Positions 5,944-39,364 of a stretch of 39,690 nucleotides of DNA are shown one piece after another; the first letter of the stretch is position 1, and every line of letters starts with the position of its first letter. The notes beneath the pieces were generated by a model. That model searched no databases, had not been told where the DNA came from, and was given only the letters and a program-made list of their open reading frames with translations. The stretch spans positions 1-39,690 of the forward strand of contig JACQNH010000005.1 in assembly GCA_016203175.1 (NCBI GenBank), in the 5' to 3' direction. The stretch comes from Candidatus Woesearchaeota archaeon. Its GTDB lineage: Archaea; Nanobdellota; Nanobdellia; SCGC-AAA011-G17; JACQNH01. The position numbers and the translations under genes are program-made.

Positions 5944-6052
5944 TCCCTTATATATTTAGTTTTAAATTTGATTCCTCAGATTTTGGATAACTTTAAAAAC
6001 AATTTTTACATTCTTTTATTAGGAGATGATAAGAACGCTAGGTTCTTATTAT

Positions 6053-6139
6053 GGATCCGTAGCTCAGCCTGGATAGAGCACCGGCCTTCTATTTTAAGGA
6101 GAAAGTCGGGGGTCGGGGGTTCAAATCCCCTCGGATCCG
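6053..6139 (+). tRNA. tRNA-Arg(TCT) with 12-nt intron at 37/38
   Basis: Acceptor stem GGATCCG/CGGATCC, D stem GCTC/GAGC, anticodon stem CCGGC/GTCGG (one G-U), T arm GGGGG-TTCAAAT-CCCCT. There are 19 nt between the anticodon stem halves: a 7-nt loop CTTCTA..A plus 12 extra nt. Confidence 0.85.
6092..6103 (+). other. tRNA-Arg intron (about 12 nt, relaxed bulge-helix-bulge)
   Basis: Loop nt CTTC (6086-6089) can pair with GGAG (6098-6101). This leaves 3-nt bulges TAT (6090-6092) and AAA (6102-6104) and only a 5-nt terminal loop. The exact splice points are inferred. Confidence 0.6.
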
Positions 6140-6147
6140 CTTTTAAA

Positions 6148-6528
6148 ATGGAAAAGAAACCCGAGGAAATCTTATTGGACTTAAGCGAAACAGAAGAAGC
6201 GAGAATCCAAGCAGCTTTTAAATTAGAAAATAGATTCGATAAAGTAGCTATTGAAGCATTTAAAAAAGCCATTAAAACAGAACCATCCCCAATAGTAAGA
6301 CACGAAATAGCATTTTCAATGGGAGAAACAGGTTCAAAAGAATTAGTTAATCCCTTAATAGAAGCAATGGAAAATGATCCGCATATTTTCGTTAGACATG
6401 AAGCAACCTTAGCGTTAGGAACATTAGGAAAAAAAGAAGCAGTTCCTCATCTTAAAAAAATACTTAAATGTGGTATTCCAGAAATAGAAGAATCTGCTAA
6501 AATCGCTTTACAAAGGATAAATAGTTAA
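6148..6528 (+). CDS. Half-size deoxyhypusine hydroxylase (DOHH)-like HEAT-repeat protein
   Basis: 126 aa with two His-Glu motifs in HEAT helices: IVRHEIAFSMGETG and FVRHEATLALGTLG, followed by IEESAKIALQRI. The 186-aa track ORF (5968..) reads through tRNA-Arg; the ATG at 6148 is the first start downstream of the tRNA. Confidence 0.65.
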   Translation: MEKKPEEILLDLSETEEARIQAAFKLENRFDKVAIEAFKKAIKTEPSPIVRHEIAFSMGETGSKELVNPLIEAMENDPHIFVRHEATLALGTLGKKEAVPHLKKILKCGIPEIEESAKIALQRINS

Positions 6529-6565: not shown

Positions 6566-6637
6566 GCGCCGTTAGCCAAGCGGTAAGGCAATTGCCTGCA
6601 GAGCAATCATACGGGGGTTCGAATCCCTCACGGCGCT
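6566..6637 (+). tRNA. tRNA-Cys(GCA)
   Basis: Perfect acceptor stem GCGCCGT/ACGGCGC, anticodon arm ATTGC-CTGCAGA-GCAAT, T arm GGGGG-TTCGAAT-CCCTC. 72 nt, no intron. Confidence 0.9.
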
Positions 6638-6649
6638 TTAATACTAAAA

Positions 6650-7273
6650 ATGCTAAACAAAGAAAAATTAGAAATGGCACAAAAATGTAGTAAATGTGGC
6701 AAACCTCTTCTAAATAAAACACAATTAAACTTAACCTCTTTAGTTTCTTCTTTTAATCTAAAAAAAGAAAATCATGAAATAAAAGACTTAAATTATAAAG
6801 ATAAATCACTAATTGAAATTTATATAGAAAAAAGTGAAATTAATATTATAATTGCCAATGAAGAATTGTGCAATGAATGCAAAAACAAAAAAGAAAATCC
6901 TTTAGAAGAAATTGTTTTAGAAGATAAAAAAGAAAATATTATCAATCCCTATAGACCTCAAATTAGTTATCTCAAAGATCTTTATGAACAAAAACAAATT
7001 TATAGTAAACAAGGTTCAAACATAGATCCTATAAGTGGCGCAACAGTTCATTATGTTTCTCCCTCTCAGTTACCCTCTGGTTATGGATGGAAAGCCTTAG
7101 GAATGTATGATCCTTCAACGCATACAATTTATATTGCAGATAACTTACCATATAACATAGAAAGATTTGTTTATCATCATGAAGTTGGTCATGCATTGGG
7201 TATTAGAAATGAACAACAAGCAGATAACTATGCAGCTTCCAAAGTAGGCTATAATATAAGAAATGCAGCTTAA
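6650..7273 (+). CDS. Putative zinc metallopeptidase with N-terminal Cys-pair (zinc-ribbon-like) region
   Basis: CSKCG ... CNEC Cys pairs in the N-terminal half; C-terminal HHEVGHALG (HExxH) followed by EQQAD. No signal peptide is evident. Confidence 0.5.
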   Translation: MLNKEKLEMAQKCSKCGKPLLNKTQLNLTSLVSSFNLKKENHEIKDLNYKDKSLIEIYIEKSEINIIIANEELCNECKNKKENPLEEIVLEDKKENIINPYRPQISYLKDLYEQKQIYSKQGSNIDPISGATVHYVSPSQLPSGYGWKALGMYDPSTHTIYIADNLPYNIERFVYHHEVGHALGIRNEQQADNYAASKVGYNIRNAA

Positions 7274-7321: not shown

Positions 7322-9016
7322 CTAAAATGTTCTAGGTGGGCTCTTTCTAAAGAACAATACCTTTACTAGACCTATAGCAATTAGTATCAAAACTATATCG
7401 GCTATAATCCATATTGCAGTATTATTCTCTTTGAAGAAGCTACTTGCATCAGAAACTTCTTTTGCTTCAACCTTGCTAGATTCAACGCTAACATCTACAG
7501 CTTGGCTTGTTACTACAGAATTACCAGCTTTAATCTCGACTACTGCTGAATTCTGTCCAAGTTTAGCATCATCTTTAGCAACTAAATTGAACACAACAGA
7601 CGAAGTAGCACCTGAAGTTAATGTTACACTCTTGCTTCCAACACTGTTTGCCCAGTCAGCATCAACATTAACAGTAAATGTTGCTTCCTGGTTTCCAGTA
7701 TTAACTACATTAACACCTAAACTTGTACTTCCGCCTTGTTTTACATCTATTTTACTAGATGCAAGAGACAATGTTGCAGATTGCTTTGAAGTTCCTGTAG
7801 TTCCAGTTATAGTTTTTACCCCAGGTTTATCACAATTTACATTCAAAACAACTGCCTGGTTATCACTTAATTTACTCTGGTCATAGAATGTTCTTACTTC
7901 TATAGTATAAGCTCCAGATTCTAAAGCAGCAAGTATGGGAATATTAAACAAAGAACTATCCCCATCATCCTCATCCAATTCTATATCTATTATCTTTTTA
8001 TTAAAGTTTAATTTTGGAGCATCTATTTCTATAGCAACTTCATCTTCATCAGATTTACCAATATTTACATAGCTAACTAATAATCTTGCATTACTAGCCT
8101 CACACCCAACTTTATCTGGACTTAATGTTGTCGACTTAATTGCAATTTCATGGCTTTCTCTTTCAACTTTAAATCTTATTTTAACTTTTTGACCATGCTT
8201 TGCATTAAAATCATCCTTACCTGATAAAGTCAATTCAACGTTGTAAGTTCCATCATCAGTATCTTCATCAACATCAAATTCAAAAGATCCTGTTTGAGTA
8301 TCATCAGAGCTAATATCAAAGTCATCATCTTCATCTAAATCTAATTTACTTTCTAAGCTCTTAACCTTAAATTCAACATCATCAATATCGACATTAGCAC
8401 TATCACTATACTCATTCTCAAGTTCAAATTCAATTCTTACATTATCACCAGGTTTAACATCTTCAACTTCATCATTTTCCTCATCAGCAGTTTGAGATTT
8501 ACCTCTAACCTTCCATTTAACACTTTTAATTGTCAACTGATTCTTTCTCTGCATATTAATATCAACAGAGCTGCTTGTTATTTTAGTTCCATTCTCAGTA
8601 GCATTAACAACTAAACTTCCAACCTTAAATGCAACAGCAGCTAAATTAGAATCAACAGCAGCTAAATTTTTAGGAGCTTTAACTCTAAATGTAATTGTAC
8701 CACTTGCACCTGCAGCCAAACTTGTTGGAGCACTATCAATTCCAACTGTACTTAATAAAATATCAGAACCAAAAGTAGAAACTGCAGTTACAGAATCAAT
8801 ACCCAAATTTGTAACAGTAAATGTTCCATTATTTGTAACCGTTAAAGTTCCAGTTAAATTAATTACCTGTGAACTAGTACTATCATGATTTGGATTACTA
8901 ACATCACTTGTACTACTACCAACAGTTAAAGTTCCAACTTGTAAAGCAGCACTTACGCTTGTAGCTAGTAAAACTAAAACAAATAAACTCAATAATATTA
9001 TTCTATTCATCTTCAT
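7322..9016 (-). CDS. Surface (S-layer-like) protein: Sec signal peptide, beta-rich repeats, C-terminal TM plus basic tail
   Basis: Start moved to ATG 9016 (MKMNRIILLSLFVLVLLATSVSA) because GGAGGTGGTGGGAG lies 8 nt upstream. Thr/Ser/Val-rich and acidic beta-type modules. Ends ...IWIIADIVLILIAIGLVKVLFFRKSPPRTF. Confidence 0.7.
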   Translation of the reverse strand: MKMNRIILLSLFVLVLLATSVSAALQVGTLTVGSSTSDVSNPNHDSTSSQVINLTGTLTVTNNGTFTVTNLGIDSVTAVSTFGSDILLSTVGIDSAPTSLAAGASGTITFRVKAPKNLAAVDSNLAAVAFKVGSLVVNATENGTKITSSSVDINMQRKNQLTIKSVKWKVRGKSQTADEENDEVEDVKPGDNVRIEFELENEYSDSANVDIDDVEFKVKSLESKLDLDEDDDFDISSDDTQTGSFEFDVDEDTDDGTYNVELTLSGKDDFNAKHGQKVKIRFKVERESHEIAIKSTTLSPDKVGCEASNARLLVSYVNIGKSDEDEVAIEIDAPKLNFNKKIIDIELDEDDGDSSLFNIPILAALESGAYTIEVRTFYDQSKLSDNQAVVLNVNCDKPGVKTITGTTGTSKQSATLSLASSKIDVKQGGSTSLGVNVVNTGNQEATFTVNVDADWANSVGSKSVTLTSGATSSVVFNLVAKDDAKLGQNSAVVEIKAGNSVVTSQAVDVSVESSKVEAKEVSDASSFFKENNTAIWIIADIVLILIAIGLVKVLFFRKSPPRTF

Positions 9017-9066: not shown

Positions 9067-10626
9067 TTAAATCTTACGGTTTAATCCTGATAATAATAAC
9101 AAGATTACTATTAATACTATTACAGTGCTAATTACAACATTAAAATTAATTTCTTCTTTTTCAACGCTCTCAACATCAACATTAAATAAAACACTATCTA
9201 TTATATTCCCATCAATAATTAAGTTAACAACACCGCTAAAACTACCTTGAACAACATCTTTAGCTTTAATAAAAAAATAATTAGTTTTACTTTCACCAGG
9301 ATTTAATTGAATTAAACTATCACCAGATATTAAATCTCCAAATTTAGCTATATTTTGAACATCCAAGTTAATTATTTTACTAATCTTTAAATCATTCTTA
9401 ACATTTATTGCTAAACTAAAGCTATCCCCAGATTTAACATCTATATTCTTTTGAATTAAACTTCCTTTAATACCTGAAACTTTAATTAACTCTGTAGGCT
9501 TTTCCTTATCGCAATTTACAATAAAAGTTTTACTTTTCTTATTGCTAGAACCATCAAAAACAACCTCCCCTTCTAAAACATAATTTCCAGGCTTAGCATT
9601 TTGAGGTATTTTAACATCAAAGTTTATAACCTCCTCATTTTTAGGGTCTTTATCATTACTATCTGCATCCTTCAATCTAATTTGATTAGAAACTTGACTA
9701 ATCCCTAATAATTCATTTAAAATTTTAACACTTACATCTTGATCCTTTTTACCAATATTTTCTATATCAAATTTAACACCTAAAATATCCCCGCATTCCA
9801 CAGTACTCGGAGTTAAACTCATTCCTTCAATAACAACATCGCTTGATTTTCTATCCAAATCCACATTAACGAATTCCTCATAACAATTTAATGTTTCCCT
9901 ATCAGGATCTTCTACCGCTTTTAAAAATAAAATATACTTGTCATTTTCATCAATCTCAGTTGTAGGAACAGTAATAAAAAATTCAAAATCTACATCAGCA
10001 CCATCTCTTATTTCTTTAACCTCACTTTTAGCCCTTACAATACTATCCCTTTCATCTATATTAAATAAATCAGCCTCAACTTGAACATCTAAATCATCAG
10101 TTCCAATATTCTCAACCTCTGCTTTAATCTTAATCTGATCTCCAGGATTAAAATTATCATTATTATCAGGGTCTTTAATTTTAACAATTAAATTTCCTTT
10201 TATCCCGTTACTACATCTATCCAAACCACTAGTAAGCAATGTCCTATCATCAACTTTTAATGTATATTGATTAATTATATTATCACTATTATTTACGCTA
10301 TTAGTAAAAGTAAAGCTTCCCTTATAATCCCCTAAATCAACATTAGTGGGGATATTAAACTTAAAACTAACTGCTTTAGTCTCAGAAGCAGCCAATATTA
10401 TATCACTAAAACTTCCAGGTGTTATTATTGTATTATTATTTTTTAAGTCACTTGCTGCAACTTTTAATGTTATACTAGAATTGCCATTAACAATAGTTGC
10501 ATTGATCTGTACGTCTTCACCCCTAAAACCAGAACCAACTACAAAATTATTAATAGAAAAACTAGCAGCGCTAACTAAACCACTAAATAAAACAACTAAA
10601 ATCAAAGTTATCGTTATTAATCTCAT
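9067..10626 (-). CDS. Surface protein, paralog of the downstream gene (signal peptide, C-terminal TM plus basic tail)
   Basis: Signal MRLITITLILVVLFSGLVSA (ATG 10626 preceded by a GGGGGG run; alternative ATG at 10644). Shares module style with 7322-9016 (PGDQIKIKAEVENIG vs PGDNVRIEFELENEY; FIVNCDKEKP vs VLNVNCDKPG). Ends ...VVISTVIVLIVILLLLSGLNRKI. Confidence 0.7.
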   Translation of the reverse strand: MRLITITLILVVLFSGLVSAASFSINNFVVGSGFRGEDVQINATIVNGNSSITLKVAASDLKNNNTIITPGSFSDIILAASETKAVSFKFNIPTNVDLGDYKGSFTFTNSVNNSDNIINQYTLKVDDRTLLTSGLDRCSNGIKGNLIVKIKDPDNNDNFNPGDQIKIKAEVENIGTDDLDVQVEADLFNIDERDSIVRAKSEVKEIRDGADVDFEFFITVPTTEIDENDKYILFLKAVEDPDRETLNCYEEFVNVDLDRKSSDVVIEGMSLTPSTVECGDILGVKFDIENIGKKDQDVSVKILNELLGISQVSNQIRLKDADSNDKDPKNEEVINFDVKIPQNAKPGNYVLEGEVVFDGSSNKKSKTFIVNCDKEKPTELIKVSGIKGSLIQKNIDVKSGDSFSLAINVKNDLKISKIINLDVQNIAKFGDLISGDSLIQLNPGESKTNYFFIKAKDVVQGSFSGVVNLIIDGNIIDSVLFNVDVESVEKEEINFNVVISTVIVLIVILLLLSGLNRKI

Positions 10627-10727
10627 TTTCCCCCCAAAGTACAACTGCAGAGTGGTATAACTATATTTAAACCTTTCGAAAAAAGTTTTGAGAAAATATT
10701 ATAAATTAAAAAGTCAAAGCATTCTTT

Positions 10728-11765
10728 ATGAAAAAATTTTATCTCCTACTATTATTAACAACTTTACTAATTTCTTGTTCACAAACAGATCAAAATAAAA
10801 TTAAAATTGGAGCAATATTACCATTAACTGGACCATATGCAGTAGCAGGTATAGATGCTAAGAACGCTATAGATCTTGCTTTAGAAGAGATTGGTAATAA
10901 AATTCAAGTAATTTATGAGGACAGTGGTGGAGAAAATTCAAAAGCAGTTTCATCTTTTAATAAATTAGTTAACTTAGATAATTCAAAAATAGTTATTACT
11001 TCAACAAGTTGGATTAGTAATACGCTATATTCTCAGGCAATTGATTCTAATGTTTTACAAGCAGTCATAGCAAGCGCAGGATTCACAAGGGCCAAAGAAA
11101 AAGATAAAGCAATCAGATTTACTGTGGCTGTTAAAGAAGAAGCTCAATATCTAAAAGATTATTTAAAAAAATTTAACAGAATAGCTGTTTTTTATCTTAA
11201 CAATGATTTTGGTAAGTTTTGGGCAGACGAAATAAAGAATGAATTTCAAGATAAAGTAGTAGCTTTAGAAAGTAGATCTCCAACAGATATAGATATGAAA
11301 GCGCAATTTGCTAAAATCAAAGATTCAAATCCAGATATATTATTTTTAGGTAATGGTGGAGGCCCAGCTGCTTTAGATGTAAGAAAAGCAAAAGAGCTTG
11401 GAATAAATGCTCAAATTGTTGGTTCAAGACCAATAGAATCTCAAGAAGTAATTCAAGAAAAAGCTACAGAGGGTTTAATATTTTCCTCTCCAGATTACAA
11501 TCAAGATCATCCAATAATTTCAAAATACAAATCAAAATATAATAAAGAACCTACTATATTTGCAGTAGAGGCCTATGATACAATAATGACATTAGCAAAA
11601 GCAACAGAAAATTGTAAAGAAGATACAACATGCATATACAATTGGCATTTAAACAAAGAATACGAAGGTATTTTAGGAAAAATAAATTTTGATGAAAAAG
11701 CAAATGCTCATTATCCATTTATCTTAAAACAAGTCAAAGATGGAAAATTTATTCTTTATGAATAG
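10728..11765 (+). CDS. Type-1 periplasmic-binding-protein-fold solute-binding lipoprotein (LivJ/branched-chain amino acid-like)
   Basis: Signal peptide with lipobox-like LLISC. IGAILPLTGPYAVAG start and alternating alpha/beta pattern typical of Leu/Ile/Val-binding SBPs. No permease or ATPase genes are adjacent. Confidence 0.65.
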   Translation: MKKFYLLLLLTTLLISCSQTDQNKIKIGAILPLTGPYAVAGIDAKNAIDLALEEIGNKIQVIYEDSGGENSKAVSSFNKLVNLDNSKIVITSTSWISNTLYSQAIDSNVLQAVIASAGFTRAKEKDKAIRFTVAVKEEAQYLKDYLKKFNRIAVFYLNNDFGKFWADEIKNEFQDKVVALESRSPTDIDMKAQFAKIKDSNPDILFLGNGGGPAALDVRKAKELGINAQIVGSRPIESQEVIQEKATEGLIFSSPDYNQDHPIISKYKSKYNKEPTIFAVEAYDTIMTLAKATENCKEDTTCIYNWHLNKEYEGILGKINFDEKANAHYPFILKQVKDGKFILYE

Positions 11766-13413: not shown

Positions 13414-13992
13414 TTATTGAAAATAACTTAAAAGATAATTTAAAACAATTTTAAAATATTTCAAAAATAAATAACCGATTACATATCCAATTAAACCTCC
13501 GAATAAAACATCACTCAAATAATGAAATCCAGCATATACCCTTACACTAGCAATTAAAATACAAACTAAAATCCAAAAATAACCCAATCTTTTATCAACA
13601 CTAAAAATAAATGGAAGCATGGAAAAAGCTGCAGCAGTATGCCAACTTGGAAAACTTTTATTAAAAGACATAAACCCATAATCGAAGCCATTTAATTTAG
13701 CATTCTCTAAAACTTCAAAAGGTCTTGTACGATTAATAAAGTATTTTAAAACAAGTATAACAAACCCAGTAGTTAAAAATGCAAAAATAGCACTTAAAAT
13801 CTTCTTCTTATCGCTAAAATACAAAAGTAAAGAAGTAAAAATCAATAATAAATAGTCTTTTAAAATCAAATAAGCATATTTAAAAAATATATTCAAAGCA
13901 TCAAATCTAAAACCAAATATAAAGGTGCTAAAGCTTTTATCTATAAAAAAACTTAAAGCAATCAACACAAGTACTAATATAATATAAATCAT
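13414..13992 (-). CDS. PAP2-family lipid phosphate phosphatase
   Basis: All three PAP2 motifs are present: KYFINRTRP (KxxxxxxRP), PSWH (PSGH-like), SRVYAGFHYLSD (SRxxxxxHxxxD). The track start at 14049 is TTG, only 4 nt from the divergent ATG at 14054; the first ATG is 13992. Confidence 0.8.
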   Translation of the reverse strand: MIYIILVLVLIALSFFIDKSFSTFIFGFRFDALNIFFKYAYLILKDYLLLIFTSLLLYFSDKKKILSAIFAFLTTGFVILVLKYFINRTRPFEVLENAKLNGFDYGFMSFNKSFPSWHTAAAFSMLPFIFSVDKRLGYFWILVCILIASVRVYAGFHYLSDVLFGGLIGYVIGYLFLKYFKIVLNYLLSYFQ

Positions 13993-14053
13993 CAAATACA
14001 ACTTAAAAAATGGATATAAAAATGTTTTTATACCTAATTTAATCCCCAATAAA

Positions 14054-15109
14054 ATGATAATTAACTTACTAACCTCATTAAGATTAATATTAATACCTTT
14101 TATATTCTATCTTTTAATAAAATCTGATTTTAAGATAGCTTTAACCTTAATAATTATAGCAGCTATAACAGATATAATTGATGGATTTTTAGCAAGAAAA
14201 TTCAAAAAAACAACGAAATTAGGAAAATTTTTAGATCCTTTAGCAGATAAATTATTAATATTTTTTATTTTAATTGCATTATTACTAAACAAAAATTTAT
14301 CTTTAGTAGAATTATTTCTTGTTCTAATAAGAGACGTTGCTGTTGCTCTATTTGTTCTTATAATGGCTATAGAAAAAAGAATTAAAAAAATAGATTTGCC
14401 TTTAACAAAAACAGGAAAATTTACAACATTCTCGCAGTTTTTATTTATTTTAAGCATTTTATTAAACATAGTTTATTTAAGAGAACTATTCCTGATTACA
14501 ACAATAATCTTATCTATAACCGCAACAATAGAATATGGTAAGAAAGTTAAAAAATATATTTTCTCTTTAAAACAAACATCAATAGAAATTTTAAAATTCT
14601 TTTTAGCTTTATTACTAGCAATTTTCTATAAAGTTTTTTACATAATTTTTACACCTTTAACAATATACCCAACATATATAATCTCAAATATTTTTTTCAA
14701 CGCAAGTTTAGTAAATAAATTTTTAATTATAGATTCCATAAAATTTGAATTCATTCCAGCTTGTATTGCAGCCTCAGCATATTTCCTTTTAACAATACTA
14801 ATATTAACTACAAAAGGAATAGATTTTAAAAAATGCCTTAAATTATTCATCATAGGTTCATTACTAATACTAATTGCAAATATAATAAGATTAGAATTCT
14901 TAATATATTTATTCAAAAATTATTCAATAGAAGTATTTAACACCATACATTTGATTATCTGGAAAGTCTTAGCTAGCATCTATGTTGTTCTAGTTTGGAT
15001 ATTCTTAACAAAATACTACAAAATAAAAGAAATCCCAGTTATTTCAACTTTAAAACAATTTTATAAACTATCTTTATTTAAAAAAAAGCTACCTAAGTAC
15101 AAATCTTAA
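14054..15109 (+). CDS. Fusion protein: CDP-alcohol phosphatidyltransferase (N) plus exosortase/archaeosortase-like domain (C)
   Basis: Res 40-65, DIIDGFLARKFKKTTKLGKFLDPLAD, is an exact D-x2-DG-x2-AR-x8-G-x3-D-x3-D match. From about res 175 a second polytopic module carries C237 (IPACIAAS), R279 (IANIIRLEF) and H299 (NTIHLIIW) in the order and spacing expected for exosortase-family transpeptidases. Confidence 0.6.
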   Translation: MIINLLTSLRLILIPFIFYLLIKSDFKIALTLIIIAAITDIIDGFLARKFKKTTKLGKFLDPLADKLLIFFILIALLLNKNLSLVELFLVLIRDVAVALFVLIMAIEKRIKKIDLPLTKTGKFTTFSQFLFILSILLNIVYLRELFLITTIILSITATIEYGKKVKKYIFSLKQTSIEILKFFLALLLAIFYKVFYIIFTPLTIYPTYIISNIFFNASLVNKFLIIDSIKFEFIPACIAASAYFLLTILILTTKGIDFKKCLKLFIIGSLLILIANIIRLEFLIYLFKNYSIEVFNTIHLIIWKVLASIYVVLVWIFLTKYYKIKEIPVISTLKQFYKLSLFKKKLPKYKS

Positions 15110-17980: not shown

Positions 17981-19288
17981 TCATAATTTACCTCTAATCT
18001 TCATATCAGTAACCTTTCTTAAAAAATCTTCAGCAGCCTTAGCATCCCTCTCAAAATTGGATATAGCCTGATTGCTCTTCTTTAGATTTTCAGAAGGTTT
18101 ATCATTTTCAAAAGCCTTAGGATTAGTATTTAAACCTTTCCCCCCTAAAATGCTCAAAACAGTCTTATTTACAAGATTTACATCAGCATTGCCCATAAGA
18201 TTAACAGAATTTCTTGCTTCTTCCTGAATAACATTTTCTACATCTGCACTAATATCTACAGCCTTGATTTCTTTTCTCTCTACTTTTACATCCACTTTAG
18301 GCTTTTCAACTGTCTCAATTTTAATTTCTTGTTTTCTCTCTACTTTTACATCCACTTTAGGCTTTTCAACATTTTCTTTTACTTCAGGTTTTGATTCTTG
18401 AGTTTTTTGGACAGTTTCTAAAGAAGTTTGTGGCTCATAATCTAATTTTTCTTTTAAAGCTAAAGCTTCTTTCTCAACACTTTTAACAACATCACCTACA
18501 TTCTCACTAGTAGTAATCTTCAATTCTTTAGCCATTCCACTTGCAACTCTATAAGCCTTAGAAACCAACAAATTAATAGTTTCCTCAGTCGCATAACCAA
18601 TCTCAACAGCAAGCAATATAGCTTCTCTAGATAAGTTTGCCAATGAATTCAAAATAGCCTCTTCATCAATATTCAAAACATCTCTAGTTAAAATTTCACC
18701 ATCTGCATAAGTTAAATTTAGTCTTAATCCTACTTCTATAGGCTCAATCCCAAACTTAGTCATTAAATCAGCCTTATCACTTGTAATAGTTTCTCCTTGC
18801 TTAACCAATAATTTATCTTCTTTAATAACAATCTTTCCACCCTCAACACCAGTTTTTAGCCCCACTCTTCCCAATTCCCCTATCATTGGACCTGCCATAA
18901 AATTAGTTGGTCCTGCAGGGATTGTAATCTCTTTAGGCGCTATTTGTCCAGCCTTAGCTTTAGTATAAGCAATATTCTTTTTCAAGATCTTAAAAATTTT
19001 AAAAGCATCTTCATTTGTAAACAATAAAGCAGTTTTACCTTTGATATTCCCTATAACTTTATCAATATTAGTTTTATTTAACCCTTTAAGCGCTCTTTCA
19101 ATTACACTATTCCTGGCCATCTTTAACTCAGCAATGCCAAATAATCCTGCCTTAATCTTTAATAACTGAGAAGCAGGCAAACCGCTTAAATCCACAACCC
19201 CAATCAACTTGTATTTAGAAGCTAAATTTTTAATTATCTCAATTTCATCCTTCTTCCATTGTGCAACTTTAGCTTGATAATTATTCAT
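17981..19288 (-). CDS. rpl10: Ribosomal stalk protein uL10 (P0) with non-canonical C-terminal extension
   Basis: The L10 core and archaeal/eukaryal insertion domain (GPMIGELGRVGLKTGVEGGKIVI) are present. At 435 aa it is longer than I remember for archaeal P0. The last roughly 150 aa contain a 20-aa tandem repeat, and the protein ends ...DMKIRGKL rather than in a P1-like acidic/LFG tail. The start overlaps the rpl1 stop by 8 nt. Confidence 0.85.
   Translation of the reverse strand: MNNYQAKVAQWKKDEIEIIKNLASKYKLIGVVDLSGLPASQLLKIKAGLFGIAELKMARNSVIERALKGLNKTNIDKVIGNIKGKTALLFTNEDAFKIFKILKKNIAYTKAKAGQIAPKEITIPAGPTNFMAGPMIGELGRVGLKTGVEGGKIVIKEDKLLVKQGETITSDKADLMTKFGIEPIEVGLRLNLTYADGEILTRDVLNIDEEAILNSLANLSREAILLAVEIGYATEETINLLVSKAYRVASGMAKELKITTSENVGDVVKSVEKEALALKEKLDYEPQTSLETVQKTQESKPEVKENVEKPKVDVKVERKQEIKIETVEKPKVDVKVERKEIKAVDISADVENVIQEEARNSVNLMGNADVNLVNKTVLSILGGKGLNTNPKAFENDKPSENLKKSNQAISNFERDAKAAEDFLRKVTDMKIRGKL
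18272..18370 (-). repeat. Intragenic tandem repeat, period 60 nt (39 nt identical)
   Basis: ttttctctctacttttacatccactttaggcttttcaac occurs at 18272-18310 and 18332-18370. It encodes VEKPKVDVKVERK twice (P0 res 307-319 and 327-339). Confidence 0.95.
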
Positions 19289-36555: not shown

Positions 36556-38115
36556 TTACTTCCCAGTCTTTTTCTTTAATTTATCTTTTAAATTTAATTT
36601 CTTCAATAATTCCTTATATCTATTTCTAATTGTTACTTCAGTAATTCCAGCTACATCAGCAACTTCCCTTTGAGTCCTTTTTTCATTGTTCATTAAAGCA
36701 GCAACATATAAACTTGCAGCAGCAATCCCTGTAGGACCTCTTCCACTAGTTAATTCTGCATCTTGAGCCTTTTCTAAAATCTCAACAGCAGTGCTTTGAG
36801 TTTCAGGACTTAATCTTAAATTAGAAGCAAATCTAGGTATAAAATCAACAGGGTTTGAAGGTAATATTCTCATTCCTAATTCTCTTGTTACAAATCTATA
36901 AGTCCTTCCAATTTCTTTCTTATCAATTCCAGAAGCTTCACTTAATTCATCTAATGTTCTTGGAACCTCATGTCTTCTGCAAGCAGCATATAAAGCACCA
37001 GCAACAACACTCTCCATACTTCTGCCTCTTACTAAACCCCTTTGAACTGCCATAGTATAAACCCTAGCAGATTCTTCCTCAACGCTCTTAGGTAATTTTA
37101 AAAAAGAAGCAACTCTTTTTAATTCAGCCAAAGCTAATTTTAAATTCCTTTCAATTGCAGTACTTATTCTATATTGCCATTTCCTTAATCTAAAAAATTT
37201 ATTTCTCTCTTTACTTCCTAATTGGTATATATCTGCCTTTTGACCAATATCAGTTCCTAAACCACGATCAAACTTAGTATTATGCAAGAAGATATTTCCT
37301 CTCCCACCTACAAAATTCTCATAGCCTGGAACTGTTAAATCATAAGCATAACCAGAAACAGACTTAACTTTTCTAATGCCCCTAACTCTTAAATACAAAA
37401 ATGGAGCTTTAGCTAATTTCAATAATTTGTTGTCATGGTACTTATTAGCAATTTTTACTGCAAGACCTCTTTTAATTCTAACCCTTTTTCCAAATTTCCA
37501 GTTTTTCTTATCCAAAATGTTAATTTCCCTTACATTTTCTATTAATGGAATCTCTTTAGGGGCTACTAAAAATTGTCCTTCTTTCAATTTATCTACTCTA
37601 ACACCAACTACCTGATTATCTTTAACAGTAAAAACACTGTGACTCCCTGTAACCCTAACCTTTTTTCCGCTTTCCAATAGTATCTCATAAACCTCATCAG
37701 CAGGATGTCTTGAAACCTCACTAATTTTCCTAAAATCTATATTATAATCTCCATCAAAAGACACACACTCAAAACCTTCAACAGGTACATATTCTATAAT
37801 TCCATCTTTCTTCAAATAGCTATTTTTTTCAGCCATTAACTCATCAACAAATTTACCAATTTTAACAATCTGTATTTTATTTTCACTTTTTATCACAACT
37901 GGCTCATCATAGTCTACAGAATAACTCATAGGAGCTCCAGTTCTTCTTCTTTTAGCAGCTTGATCAGAATCAAATTCAGTCCATTCTTGACCTAAATCAA
38001 CCATTCTTTCTTCAACTACTAAACCACAATCTCTACAGATCATTTCTCCACGATCCTTATTAAGAATTAAGTTTATGCTCCCGCATTCCGGACACTTTTT
38101 AATATAGCCTGCCAT
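36556..38115 (-). CDS. tfb: Transcription initiation factor B (TFB/TFIIB) interrupted by a mini-intein
   Basis: Zn ribbon CPECG...CRDCG, B-reader GQEWTEFDSDQAAKRRRTGAPMSY, and two cyclin repeats at the C-terminus. A 214-aa insertion sits between ...PMSY and TKFDRGLGTDIG. Confidence 0.9.
   Translation of the reverse strand: MAGYIKKCPECGSINLILNKDRGEMICRDCGLVVEERMVDLGQEWTEFDSDQAAKRRRTGAPMSYSVDYDEPVVIKSENKIQIVKIGKFVDELMAEKNSYLKKDGIIEYVPVEGFECVSFDGDYNIDFRKISEVSRHPADEVYEILLESGKKVRVTGSHSVFTVKDNQVVGVRVDKLKEGQFLVAPKEIPLIENVREINILDKKNWKFGKRVRIKRGLAVKIANKYHDNKLLKLAKAPFLYLRVRGIRKVKSVSGYAYDLTVPGYENFVGGRGNIFLHNTKFDRGLGTDIGQKADIYQLGSKERNKFFRLRKWQYRISTAIERNLKLALAELKRVASFLKLPKSVEEESARVYTMAVQRGLVRGRSMESVVAGALYAACRRHEVPRTLDELSEASGIDKKEIGRTYRFVTRELGMRILPSNPVDFIPRFASNLRLSPETQSTAVEILEKAQDAELTSGRGPTGIAAASLYVAALMNNEKRTQREVADVAGITEVTIRNRYKELLKKLNLKDKLKKKTGK
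37279..37920 (-). mobile_element. Mini-intein in TFB (Ser1 ... His-Asn / Thr+1)
   Basis: Block A-like SVDYDEPVVI, block B VRVTGSHSVFTV (TxxH), block F YAYDLTVPGYENFV, block G GNIFLHN followed by Thr. No LAGLIDADG or HNH motifs. Removal restores RTGAPMSY-TKFDRGLGT, collinear with canonical TFB. Confidence 0.8.
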
Positions 38116-39178: not shown

Positions 39179-39216
39179 ATACTTTTAAATAAATATAATT
39201 CTTTAAAACATTTCAT

Positions 39217-39312
39217 GCGGGAGTGCCGGAGCGGCCAAACGGATCTGGCTTAGGTTCAATGAAGAAACCAGATGGCTTAGTGCCTACTAAGGTTCAAATC
39301 CTTACTCCCGCA
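39217..39312 (+). tRNA. tRNA-Leu(TAG) with 12-nt intron at 37/38
   Basis: Acceptor stem GCGGGAG/CTCCCGC, anticodon stem TCTGG/CCAGA separated by 19 nt (loop CTTAGG..A plus 12 nt), a long variable arm (TGGCTTAGTGCCTAC), and T arm TAAGG-TTCAAAT-CCTTA. Confidence 0.85.
39255..39266 (+). other. tRNA-Leu intron (about 12 nt)
   Basis: ttcaatgaagaa lies between G37 and A38. As in the tRNA-Arg intron it is followed by an AAA bulge before the 3' anticodon stem. The central helix CTT/AAG is weak. Confidence 0.55.
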
Positions 39313-39364
39313 AAATTTTCTATCGCTTCAATAAGTTTAAATAATATAAAATCAAATTCATTTT

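Follow-up and report, generated by a model that had tools for sequence, protein, structure and literature searches.

The hypusine of the initiation factor IF5A is essential in eukaryotes and is also found in some archaea. The closest described system to the one considered here is eukaryotic deoxyhypusine hydroxylase (DOHH, Lia1 or nero; EC 1.14.99.29; 4d4z.pdb), a single chain of about 300 residues with two lobes of four HEAT hairpins and four His-Glu (HE) pairs, located on hairpins 2 and 3 of each lobe. The current study concerns a stretch of DNA of 39,690 nucleotides from Candidatus Woesearchaeota archaeon (contig JACQNH010000005.1), referred to throughout as the window, and in particular a gene at positions 6148 to 6528 that encodes a 126-residue protein resembling one DOHH lobe. 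A preliminary description of the window had put this protein forward as a half-size candidate for a missing archaeal DOHH.

The roles of the residues of human DOHH were taken from a review, according to which the di-iron center is anchored by H56, H89, E90, H207, H240 and E241, and the deoxyhypusine side chain is bound by E57, E90, E208, E241 and two glycines (PMC9117371). Papers from 2012, 2016 and 2021 state that archaea have no DOHH orthologue, and the literature searched yielded no description of a DOHH from archaea, Asgard and DPANN included. The statement in the preliminary description that no DOHH is known from archaea thus agrees with the literature to 2021, but full-length archaeal proteins with four HE pairs are already in the databases, and some half-size and full-length members are automatically labelled "deoxyhypusine monooxygenase" in IMG, while the NCBI label for the same proteins is "HEAT repeat domain-containing protein". 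The hint is already present in automatic annotation, and nothing on it was found in the literature searched.

The other system that has to be compared is the PBS-lyase-type HEAT repeat (HEAT_PBS and HEAT_2), found in CpcE/F, NblB and YibA and in the designed alphaRep proteins, which were built from its consensus. The window protein has the same 31-residue scaffold, with VR..AA.ALG and the Gly, Leu and Val positions. Unlike the window protein, PBS-lyase-type repeats are without HE pairs at the key columns (3-12% per residue) and without the DOHH-type signature positions, they form continuous solenoids rather than a two-lobed dyad, and the natural members score far below DOHH with the profile of the half-size family.

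Fold and putative metal-ligand residues of the half-size protein

The gene and its parts, all on the forward strand, were the following.

6148..6528, + strand, stop codon included: gene for the half-size DOHH-like protein, 126 aa (open reading frame, translation, homologs)
6160..6225, + strand: HEAT hairpin 1, residues 5-26 (AlphaFold2 helices H5-10 and H16-26)
6241..6330, + strand: HEAT hairpin 2, residues 32-61, with PSPIVRHEIAFSMGE (AlphaFold2 helices H32-44 and H48-61)
6301..6306, + strand: His52-Glu53, in IVRHEIAFSMGETG, aligned with human H56-E57 and H207-E208
6337..6426, + strand: HEAT hairpin 3, residues 64-93, with FVRHEATLALGTLG (AlphaFold2 helices H64-76 and H80-93)
6397..6402, + strand: His84-Glu85, in FVRHEATLALGTLG, aligned with human H89-E90 and H240-E241
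6433..6522, + strand: HEAT hairpin 4, residues 96-125, with EIEESAKIALQRI (AlphaFold2 helices H96-105 and H111-125)

Translation of the open reading frame (ORF) from the ATG at 6148 gave the 126-residue protein of the preliminary description, with both HE sites and the segments IVRHEIAFSMGETG, FVRHEATLALGTLG and EIEESAKIALQRI in place. An AlphaFold2 monomer model, built with a 47-sequence alignment, consisted of eight helices arranged as four HEAT hairpins (predicted local distance difference test, pLDDT, 97.5; predicted TM-score, pTM, 0.90), in agreement with the HEAT-like helical hairpins and two HE motifs that had been read from the sequence. Each HE pair opens the second helix of its hairpin. 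The best structural match to the model was human DOHH, with a TM-score of 0.89 and a root-mean-square deviation (rmsd) of 1.4 Å over 122 columns, and this was the only natural protein among the top 37 matches.

The ORF aligned over its full length with both halves of human DOHH, HE to HE. The human motifs given in the preliminary description were correct, and the human sequence used in the alignment was identical to 4d4z.pdb over residues 1-289. The equivalents of the human iron ligands H56, H89 and E90 were H52, H84 and E85, all conserved, and those of the substrate-binding residues E57, E90 and G63 were E53, E85 and G59, all invariant, although the glycine seven residues after the histidine carries little weight because it is present in 85% of generic HEAT repeats. 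Among the aligned homologs, H52 was retained in 46 of 47 sequences and E53, H84 and E85 each in 47 of 47, so that the HE residues, whose loss in orthologs would have spoken against the proposal, proved to be kept. The family-invariant residues also include the P46-R51 block, A55, F56 and E60 in hairpin 2, together with E53 and G59, and F81, V82, A89 and T92 in hairpin 3, together with H84 and E85.

The likeness to DOHH extends to both ends of the protein, where the N-terminal cap LLD...R.[RQ]A.F.L and the last-helix motif E[ST].x[ILV]AL are common to the two. The cap motif of hairpin 1, ILLDL...ARIQAAFKLE, pairs with LLD...RYRAMFALR of DOHH and is covered by the hhalign alignment described below, while EIEESAKIALQRI of the C-terminal helix pairs with E[ST]C.[LV]AL. 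F24, S47 and E115 are common to the ORF and both eukaryotic lobes; the position of F24 is aromatic in all HE-type units vs 11% of generic units. Every HE-type group conserves I49, the aromatic F56, S116 and I119, which occur in 10-22% of generic units, and E115, S116 and I119 are common to both eukaryotic halves and rare in generic units. Altogether about 8-13 signature positions besides HE are common to both eukaryotic halves and rare in generic HEAT units.

The generic comparison was made with 648 four-repeat units taken from long HEAT proteins. At the two pairs of HE columns these units had His in 3-4% and Glu in 9-13% (in one count 3% and 9% at the columns of H52 and E53, and 3% and 12% at those of H84 and E85), which gives a joint chance of about 2e-5 for HE at both key columns. 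Both pairs were seen in 7 of the 648 units, six of which lay within three DOHH fusion proteins. The only case outside the fusion proteins was one four-repeat unit at residues 720-813 of P0133, a multi-HEAT protein of 1029 aa.

With a profile of the half-size family, the scores per domain were 180-237 bits for family members, 111-134 bits for the lobes of the Heimdallarchaeota full-length proteins, 63-77 bits for eukaryotic DOHH lobes and 52 bits for the best of 947 generic HEAT domains. Against the PDB the same profile gave 104.9 bits for human DOHH, 24.5 bits for the PBS lyase CpcE and 23.5 bits for YibA. The only PDB proteins that scored comparably to human DOHH were the designed consensus alphaRep proteins, which human DOHH itself matches at 127 bits. 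Profile-profile comparison with eukaryotic DOHH by hhalign gave a probability of 99.7 and an E-value of 5e-27 over 127 columns, N-terminal cap included. The protein is homologous to the DOHH lobes, and we consider it probable that the ORF encodes a DOHH-type metalloprotein lobe.

There are also differences from eukaryotic DOHH. The window protein is one lobe of 126 aa with two HE pairs, the long inter-lobe linker and the C-terminal tail of DOHH are absent, and the identity to eukaryotic DOHH lobes is only 27-33%. The two lobes of DOHH are held in one chain, whereas the window protein would need to dimerize to form the site.

The half-size family and its full-length relatives

A protein database search retrieved 52 homologs at 50-61% identity, nearly all of them 125-145 aa in length. 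In a pattern scan of a single genome from each species, complete ORFs that share the same ends and are 124-147 aa long turned up at about 40 loci, on contigs as long as 633 kb. These loci were mostly from Woesearchaeota, Pacearchaeota and Nanoarchaeota, and four came from metagenome-assembled genomes (MAGs) labelled Heimdallarchaeota. A more distant half-size clade, with members of 162-207 aa that carry an N-terminal extension and the motifs VRHEAAFxLGQ and IVRHES, was present in Bathyarchaeia, Marsarchaeota and Thermoprotei. When a profile was built from this clade, it retrieved more than 3,000 proteins at E<1e-8, and all 120 of the matches listed for it had at least two HE pairs. The 126-residue protein thus belongs to a widespread and coherent archaeal family of half-size proteins.

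Outside the half-size family, the nearest relatives belonged to Heimdallarchaeota/Kariarchaeaceae and to Nanoarchaeota. They are 244-300 aa long and contain the whole unit twice, with four HE pairs in all.

Heimdallarchaeota/Kariarchaeaceae full-length DOHH-like proteins, 244-265 aa, four HE pairs: P0053, P0054, P0057, P0061; L035, 3713-4477; L043, 10001-10756
Nanoarchaeota full-length DOHH-like clade, 265-300 aa, four HE pairs: P0067, P0092, P0271, P0306, P0309; L045, 10001-10837

The motifs that flank the HE pairs are the same in the window protein and in these proteins (P0053 and P0054; P0092 and P0271), and the half-size family has a per-lobe identity of about 44% to the Heimdallarchaeota C-lobe, compared with about 37% to the lobes from Nanoarchaeota. 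What differs is that the full-length proteins are tandem two-lobe fusions, while the lobe encoded in the window stands alone. When P0054 from Kariarchaeaceae was modelled (pLDDT 95.9; pTM 0.93), the model superposed on human DOHH (4d4z.pdb) over 283 columns with TM-scores of 0.82 and 0.76, vs TM-scores of 0.37-0.45 and an rmsd of 12-15 Å for the eight-repeat solenoids alphaRep-7 and YibA. In the model, this full-length relative takes the two-lobed arrangement of DOHH rather than that of a continuous solenoid. Such natural "Rosetta stone" fusions argue that two stand-alone lobes could pair in the same way. No report of the Heimdallarchaeota full-length proteins was found in the literature searched.

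Three longer proteins, P0104 (626 aa), P0136 (671 aa) and P0146 (756 aa), have an N-terminal eukaryote-type DOHH with both lobes and LLKHELAYCLGQ-type motifs, fused to several hundred further residues.

Relationship of the lobes

Neighbor-joining trees were calculated from single lobes over 110-114 columns. The N and C lobes of the eukaryotic proteins were each other's closest relatives (193 of 200 and 95 of 100 bootstraps), and those of the Nanoarchaeota proteins also paired (132 of 200 and 76 of 100). The half-size sequences were central in the tree and had short branches, while no sister group of eukaryotic DOHH was supported in these trees. The pairing of the lobes fits independent tandem duplications of what may have been a half-size ancestor, and the tree, crude as it is, suggests that the half-size form may be ancestral-like. 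The broader scheme would be that a stand-alone, homodimeric half-DOHH was the ancestral enzyme, that it is widespread in archaea (DPANN, Asgard and TACK), and that separate tandem duplications produced the two-lobed chain on at least three occasions (eukaryotic stem, Heimdallarchaeota, Nanoarchaeota). We put this forward tentatively, as a scheme that may well turn out to be wrong.

Start site and flanking tRNA genes

The gene is closely bordered by two tRNA genes.

6053-6140, + strand: tRNA with a 12-nt intron, ending 7-8 nt before the ATG of the half-DOHH gene
6566-6637, + strand: tRNA-Cys, beginning 38 nt past the stop of the half-DOHH gene

The longest mechanical ORF starts with a TTG at 5968. 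This was rejected as the true start because the ORF would overlap the tRNA gene and because the homologs begin at the equivalent of the ATG, their N-termini matching position 6148 in the family alignment. The isotype of the upstream tRNA is ambiguous, since ARAGORN with the -i option gave Ser(AGA) and the anticodon read by eye was UCU. At another locus, L015, a tRNA-Leu gene (8051-8136) lies on the same strand 6 nt ahead of the half-size homolog. The tRNA genes that tightly flank the half-DOHH gene and the L015 homolog suggest co-transcription with the tRNA and a nearly leaderless mRNA. At L007, L009 and L017 a divergent tRNA-Leu(CAA) lies 74-264 nt upstream of the half-size homolog.

Hypusine pathway, polyamine and oxygen-related genes

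All sequenced archaea have DHS (PMC5178350). The DPANN relatives of the window have an aIF5A whose loop reads S-K-[TP]-G-K-H-G, the canonical form, and a DHS in which the active-site lysine of SWGK is present. The genes for DHS and aIF5A, which the preliminary description had proposed to look for, were accordingly present with intact motifs in related genomes, but neither was in the window. Genes for aIF5A or DHS were located within 10 kb of the half-size gene in 6 of 46 loci vs about 1.3 expected (Poisson P of about 0.002, with genome sizes and independence assumed), which is a weak enrichment of hypusine-pathway genes. In addition, a spermidine synthase gene adjoins the half-size gene in four of the loci listed below (L049-52) and is 4.5-6 kb away in two others (L055 and L058).

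Bathyarchaeia-type loci L049-L052 and L055-L058: half-size gene at 8001-85xx in each

The Nanoarchaeota full-length gene of L045, at 10001-10837 of a 1.09-Mb contig, is 2.6 kb from a DHS gene (13453-14586); no such proximity was seen on three other contigs with Nanoarchaeota full-length homologs.

A COX1 gene was found 3 kb from the gene of the Thermoprotei-labelled protein P0357. The window itself contains a gene of an O2-dependent type.

174-953, + strand: fatty-acid-desaturase-family protein (PF00487, E 4e-20)

The fatty-acid-desaturase family consists of membrane di-iron, O2-dependent enzymes. Given the isoprenoid lipids of archaea, a desaturase gene was unexpected in an archaeon with a DPANN-like genome.

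A possible reaction scheme

If the half-size protein were a DOHH, the reaction could proceed as follows, 1) two copies would pair symmetrically, so that the dimer has the two-lobed dyad seen in eukaryotic DOHH, 2) each subunit would hold one iron through His52, His84 and Glu85, 3) the two irons would meet at the dimer interface to form an O2-activating di-iron center, 4) Glu53 and Glu85 would help to bind the side chain of the deoxyhypusine on aIF5A, with G59 also in contact with it, and 5) C2 of the deoxyhypusine would be hydroxylated to give hypusine. We infer dimerization from the natural tandem fusions only, and likewise infer that iron is bound, which substrate is used and that O2 takes part. 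The chances that the half-size protein hydroxylates aIF5A as a homodimer appear to us to be evenly balanced.

Alternative explanations

Several results speak against this scheme, and they are set out here together with the explanations that they favor. One is that the protein is a non-catalytic HEAT or PBS-lyase-like scaffold or adaptor in which the HE pairs serve protein binding or stability. Pfam, which like NCBIfam has no DOHH-specific model, matched the ORF only to HEAT_2 (61 bits) and HEAT_PBS (44 bits), and NCBIfam gave weak matches to CpcE and NblB. Generic profiles also scored the ORF as well as DOHH profiles did. With a generic set that was biased, because its members were those of the retrieved generic domains that most resembled the family, the hhalign score was 160 vs 155-157 for the eukaryotic lobes, and the ORF scored 95.6 bits on the generic hidden Markov model vs 79.6 bits on the eukaryotic DOHH-half model. 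The raw identity was 0.34 to generic units vs 0.30-0.32 to eukaryotic lobes. Whole-profile scores fail to separate DOHH from generic HEAT repeats, and on this point the result went partly against the preliminary description, which had named generic profile scores equal to or better than those of DOHH as grounds for rejecting its proposal. The half-size family is a short-branch, consensus-like HEAT protein, and as judged from the alignments its DOHH-type mark is a set of about 8-13 specific positions, the four metal-ligand residues foremost, rather than overall similarity. A further point for a scaffold is that the HE pairs fall in columns that vary strongly from one generic HEAT unit to the next. 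Against it, these variable columns are invariant His and Glu in the approximately 47 members and in every HE-type clade, whether from DPANN, Asgard or TACK archaea or from eukaryotes. Moreover, the NCBIfam matches are far under the cut-offs (28.5 bits vs 330 for CpcE; 25.5 vs 300 for NblB), the natural PBS lyase structures reach 24 bits vs 105 for DOHH, and no phycobilisome genes were seen in the window. A scaffold or adaptor is therefore improbable. The trees bear on a related point, because the monophyly of HE-type units (122 of 200 bootstraps) was lost once sequences from TACK archaea were added. Since that monophyly is not robust, HE may have been gained convergently, and concerted evolution, compositional effects or the crude method could give the same tree as independent duplications.

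A truncated remnant, or a mis-called fragment of a full-length eight-repeat DOHH-like gene, has in its favor that full-length relatives exist and that a number of the short entries in the database are pieces from very small contigs, such as P0181 on a contig of 550 bp. There is no room for a second half in the window, however, because a tRNA gene lies 7-8 nt upstream and the stop codon is followed by another. Also against it are the complete 124-147-aa ORFs with matching ends at about 40 loci, on contigs as long as 633 kb, and the complete and confident monomer model. A pseudogene or fragment was ruled out by the flanking tRNAs and by the ORFs of the same length elsewhere, and the chance that the gene is a remnant is very slight. 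A more serious rival is an oxygen-related role other than the hydroxylation of aIF5A, in which the fold and the metal site would be the same but the job different. The protein would then be a HEAT protein that binds metal through His and Glu, as a dimer or with a partner, and either oxidizes another substrate or acts as a sensor or scavenger of O2 or iron. Its HE ligands are conserved, but the gene forms no operon with DHS or aIF5A. DHS and aIF5A are both missing from the 39.7-kb window, no neighbor was shared by more than 10 of 43 sequences (42 loci and the window) in an all-against-all clustering of ORFs, and neither DHS nor aIF5A was found within 10 kb of the full-length homologs on 4 of 5 long contigs. 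In every Bathyarchaeia-type locus examined (five different), the half-size gene is divergently paired with the anaerobic ribonucleotide reductase gene nrdD, which hints at an oxygen-related role in anaerobes and fits an O2-dependent enzyme poorly, because the nrdD product is oxygen-sensitive. Some of the organisms that have the gene look like anaerobes. Between the family and eukaryotic DOHH lobes identity reaches only about 30%, and the deep nodes of the tree are poorly supported. Furthermore, hypusine has been reported in Thermoproteus tenax and Pyrodictium occultum. Both are strict anaerobes, so an O2-dependent DOHH cannot explain all archaeal hypusine. On the other side, the human deoxyhypusine-binding residues (E57, E90 and the Gly seven residues after the histidine) are all conserved, DOHH is the only characterized HEAT protein with such a pattern of motifs, the full-length archaeal fusions, as modelled for P0054, reproduce the DOHH architecture, and polyamine and hypusine genes are modestly enriched nearby. 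The nrdD pairing also counts as a single observation, because it comes from related genomes with shared synteny. We regard such a different job as a serious possibility, though less likely than not.

Other features of the window

The window is archaeal by content, with genes for TFB, TFE-alpha, Cdc6/Orc1, the ribosomal proteins L1, P0, P1 and S8e, a Tyw1-like radical SAM enzyme and AlaRS. Its G+C content is 28.9%, and the best matches of its proteins were to Woesearchaeota, Pacearchaeota and Nanoarchaeota MAG loci at 33-55% identity, which together point to a DPANN archaeon as the likely source. Four further features were recorded.

6650-7273, + strand: 207-aa protein with a Cys-rich zinc-ribbon-like N-terminus (CSKCGK...CNEC) and HHEVGHALG (HExxH) near the C-terminus
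17981-19288, - strand: ribosomal stalk protein P0/L10, 435 aa, with recognized domains only at residues 9-181
36556-38115, - strand: transcription factor B gene with an intein (TFIIB repeats, Zn ribbon, Intein_splicing 75 bits)
39216-39313, + strand: tRNA-Leu(TAA) with a 12-nt intron, called with introns allowed

The only database signal for the 207-aa protein was a weak match to DUF3810; from its motifs it may be a small metalloprotease. The P0/L10 protein has an unannotated C-terminal extension of about 250 residues. In the default scan the tRNA at 39216-39313 was reported as an undetermined tRNA with a four-base anticodon.

Significance of the half-size family

The half-size family, being small, conserved and easy to express, is a testable candidate for the hydroxylase that would complete hypusine in archaea. 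If the stand-alone half-DOHH is indeed the ancestral enzyme, the oxygen-dependent completion of hypusine would predate the eukaryotes, and the "missing" archaeal DOHH would already be in the databases, filed among generic HEAT-repeat proteins. Thousands of "HEAT repeat" proteins would also need new labels. Were the half-size protein active, it would clearly exemplify a symmetric homodimeric enzyme whose two copies later became fused into a pseudo-symmetric single chain, and it would show a route from a binding scaffold to a di-iron oxygenase. Together with the full-length Heimdallarchaeota homologs, an active half-size protein would also mean that the archaeal relatives of eukaryotes have a complete hypusine pathway.

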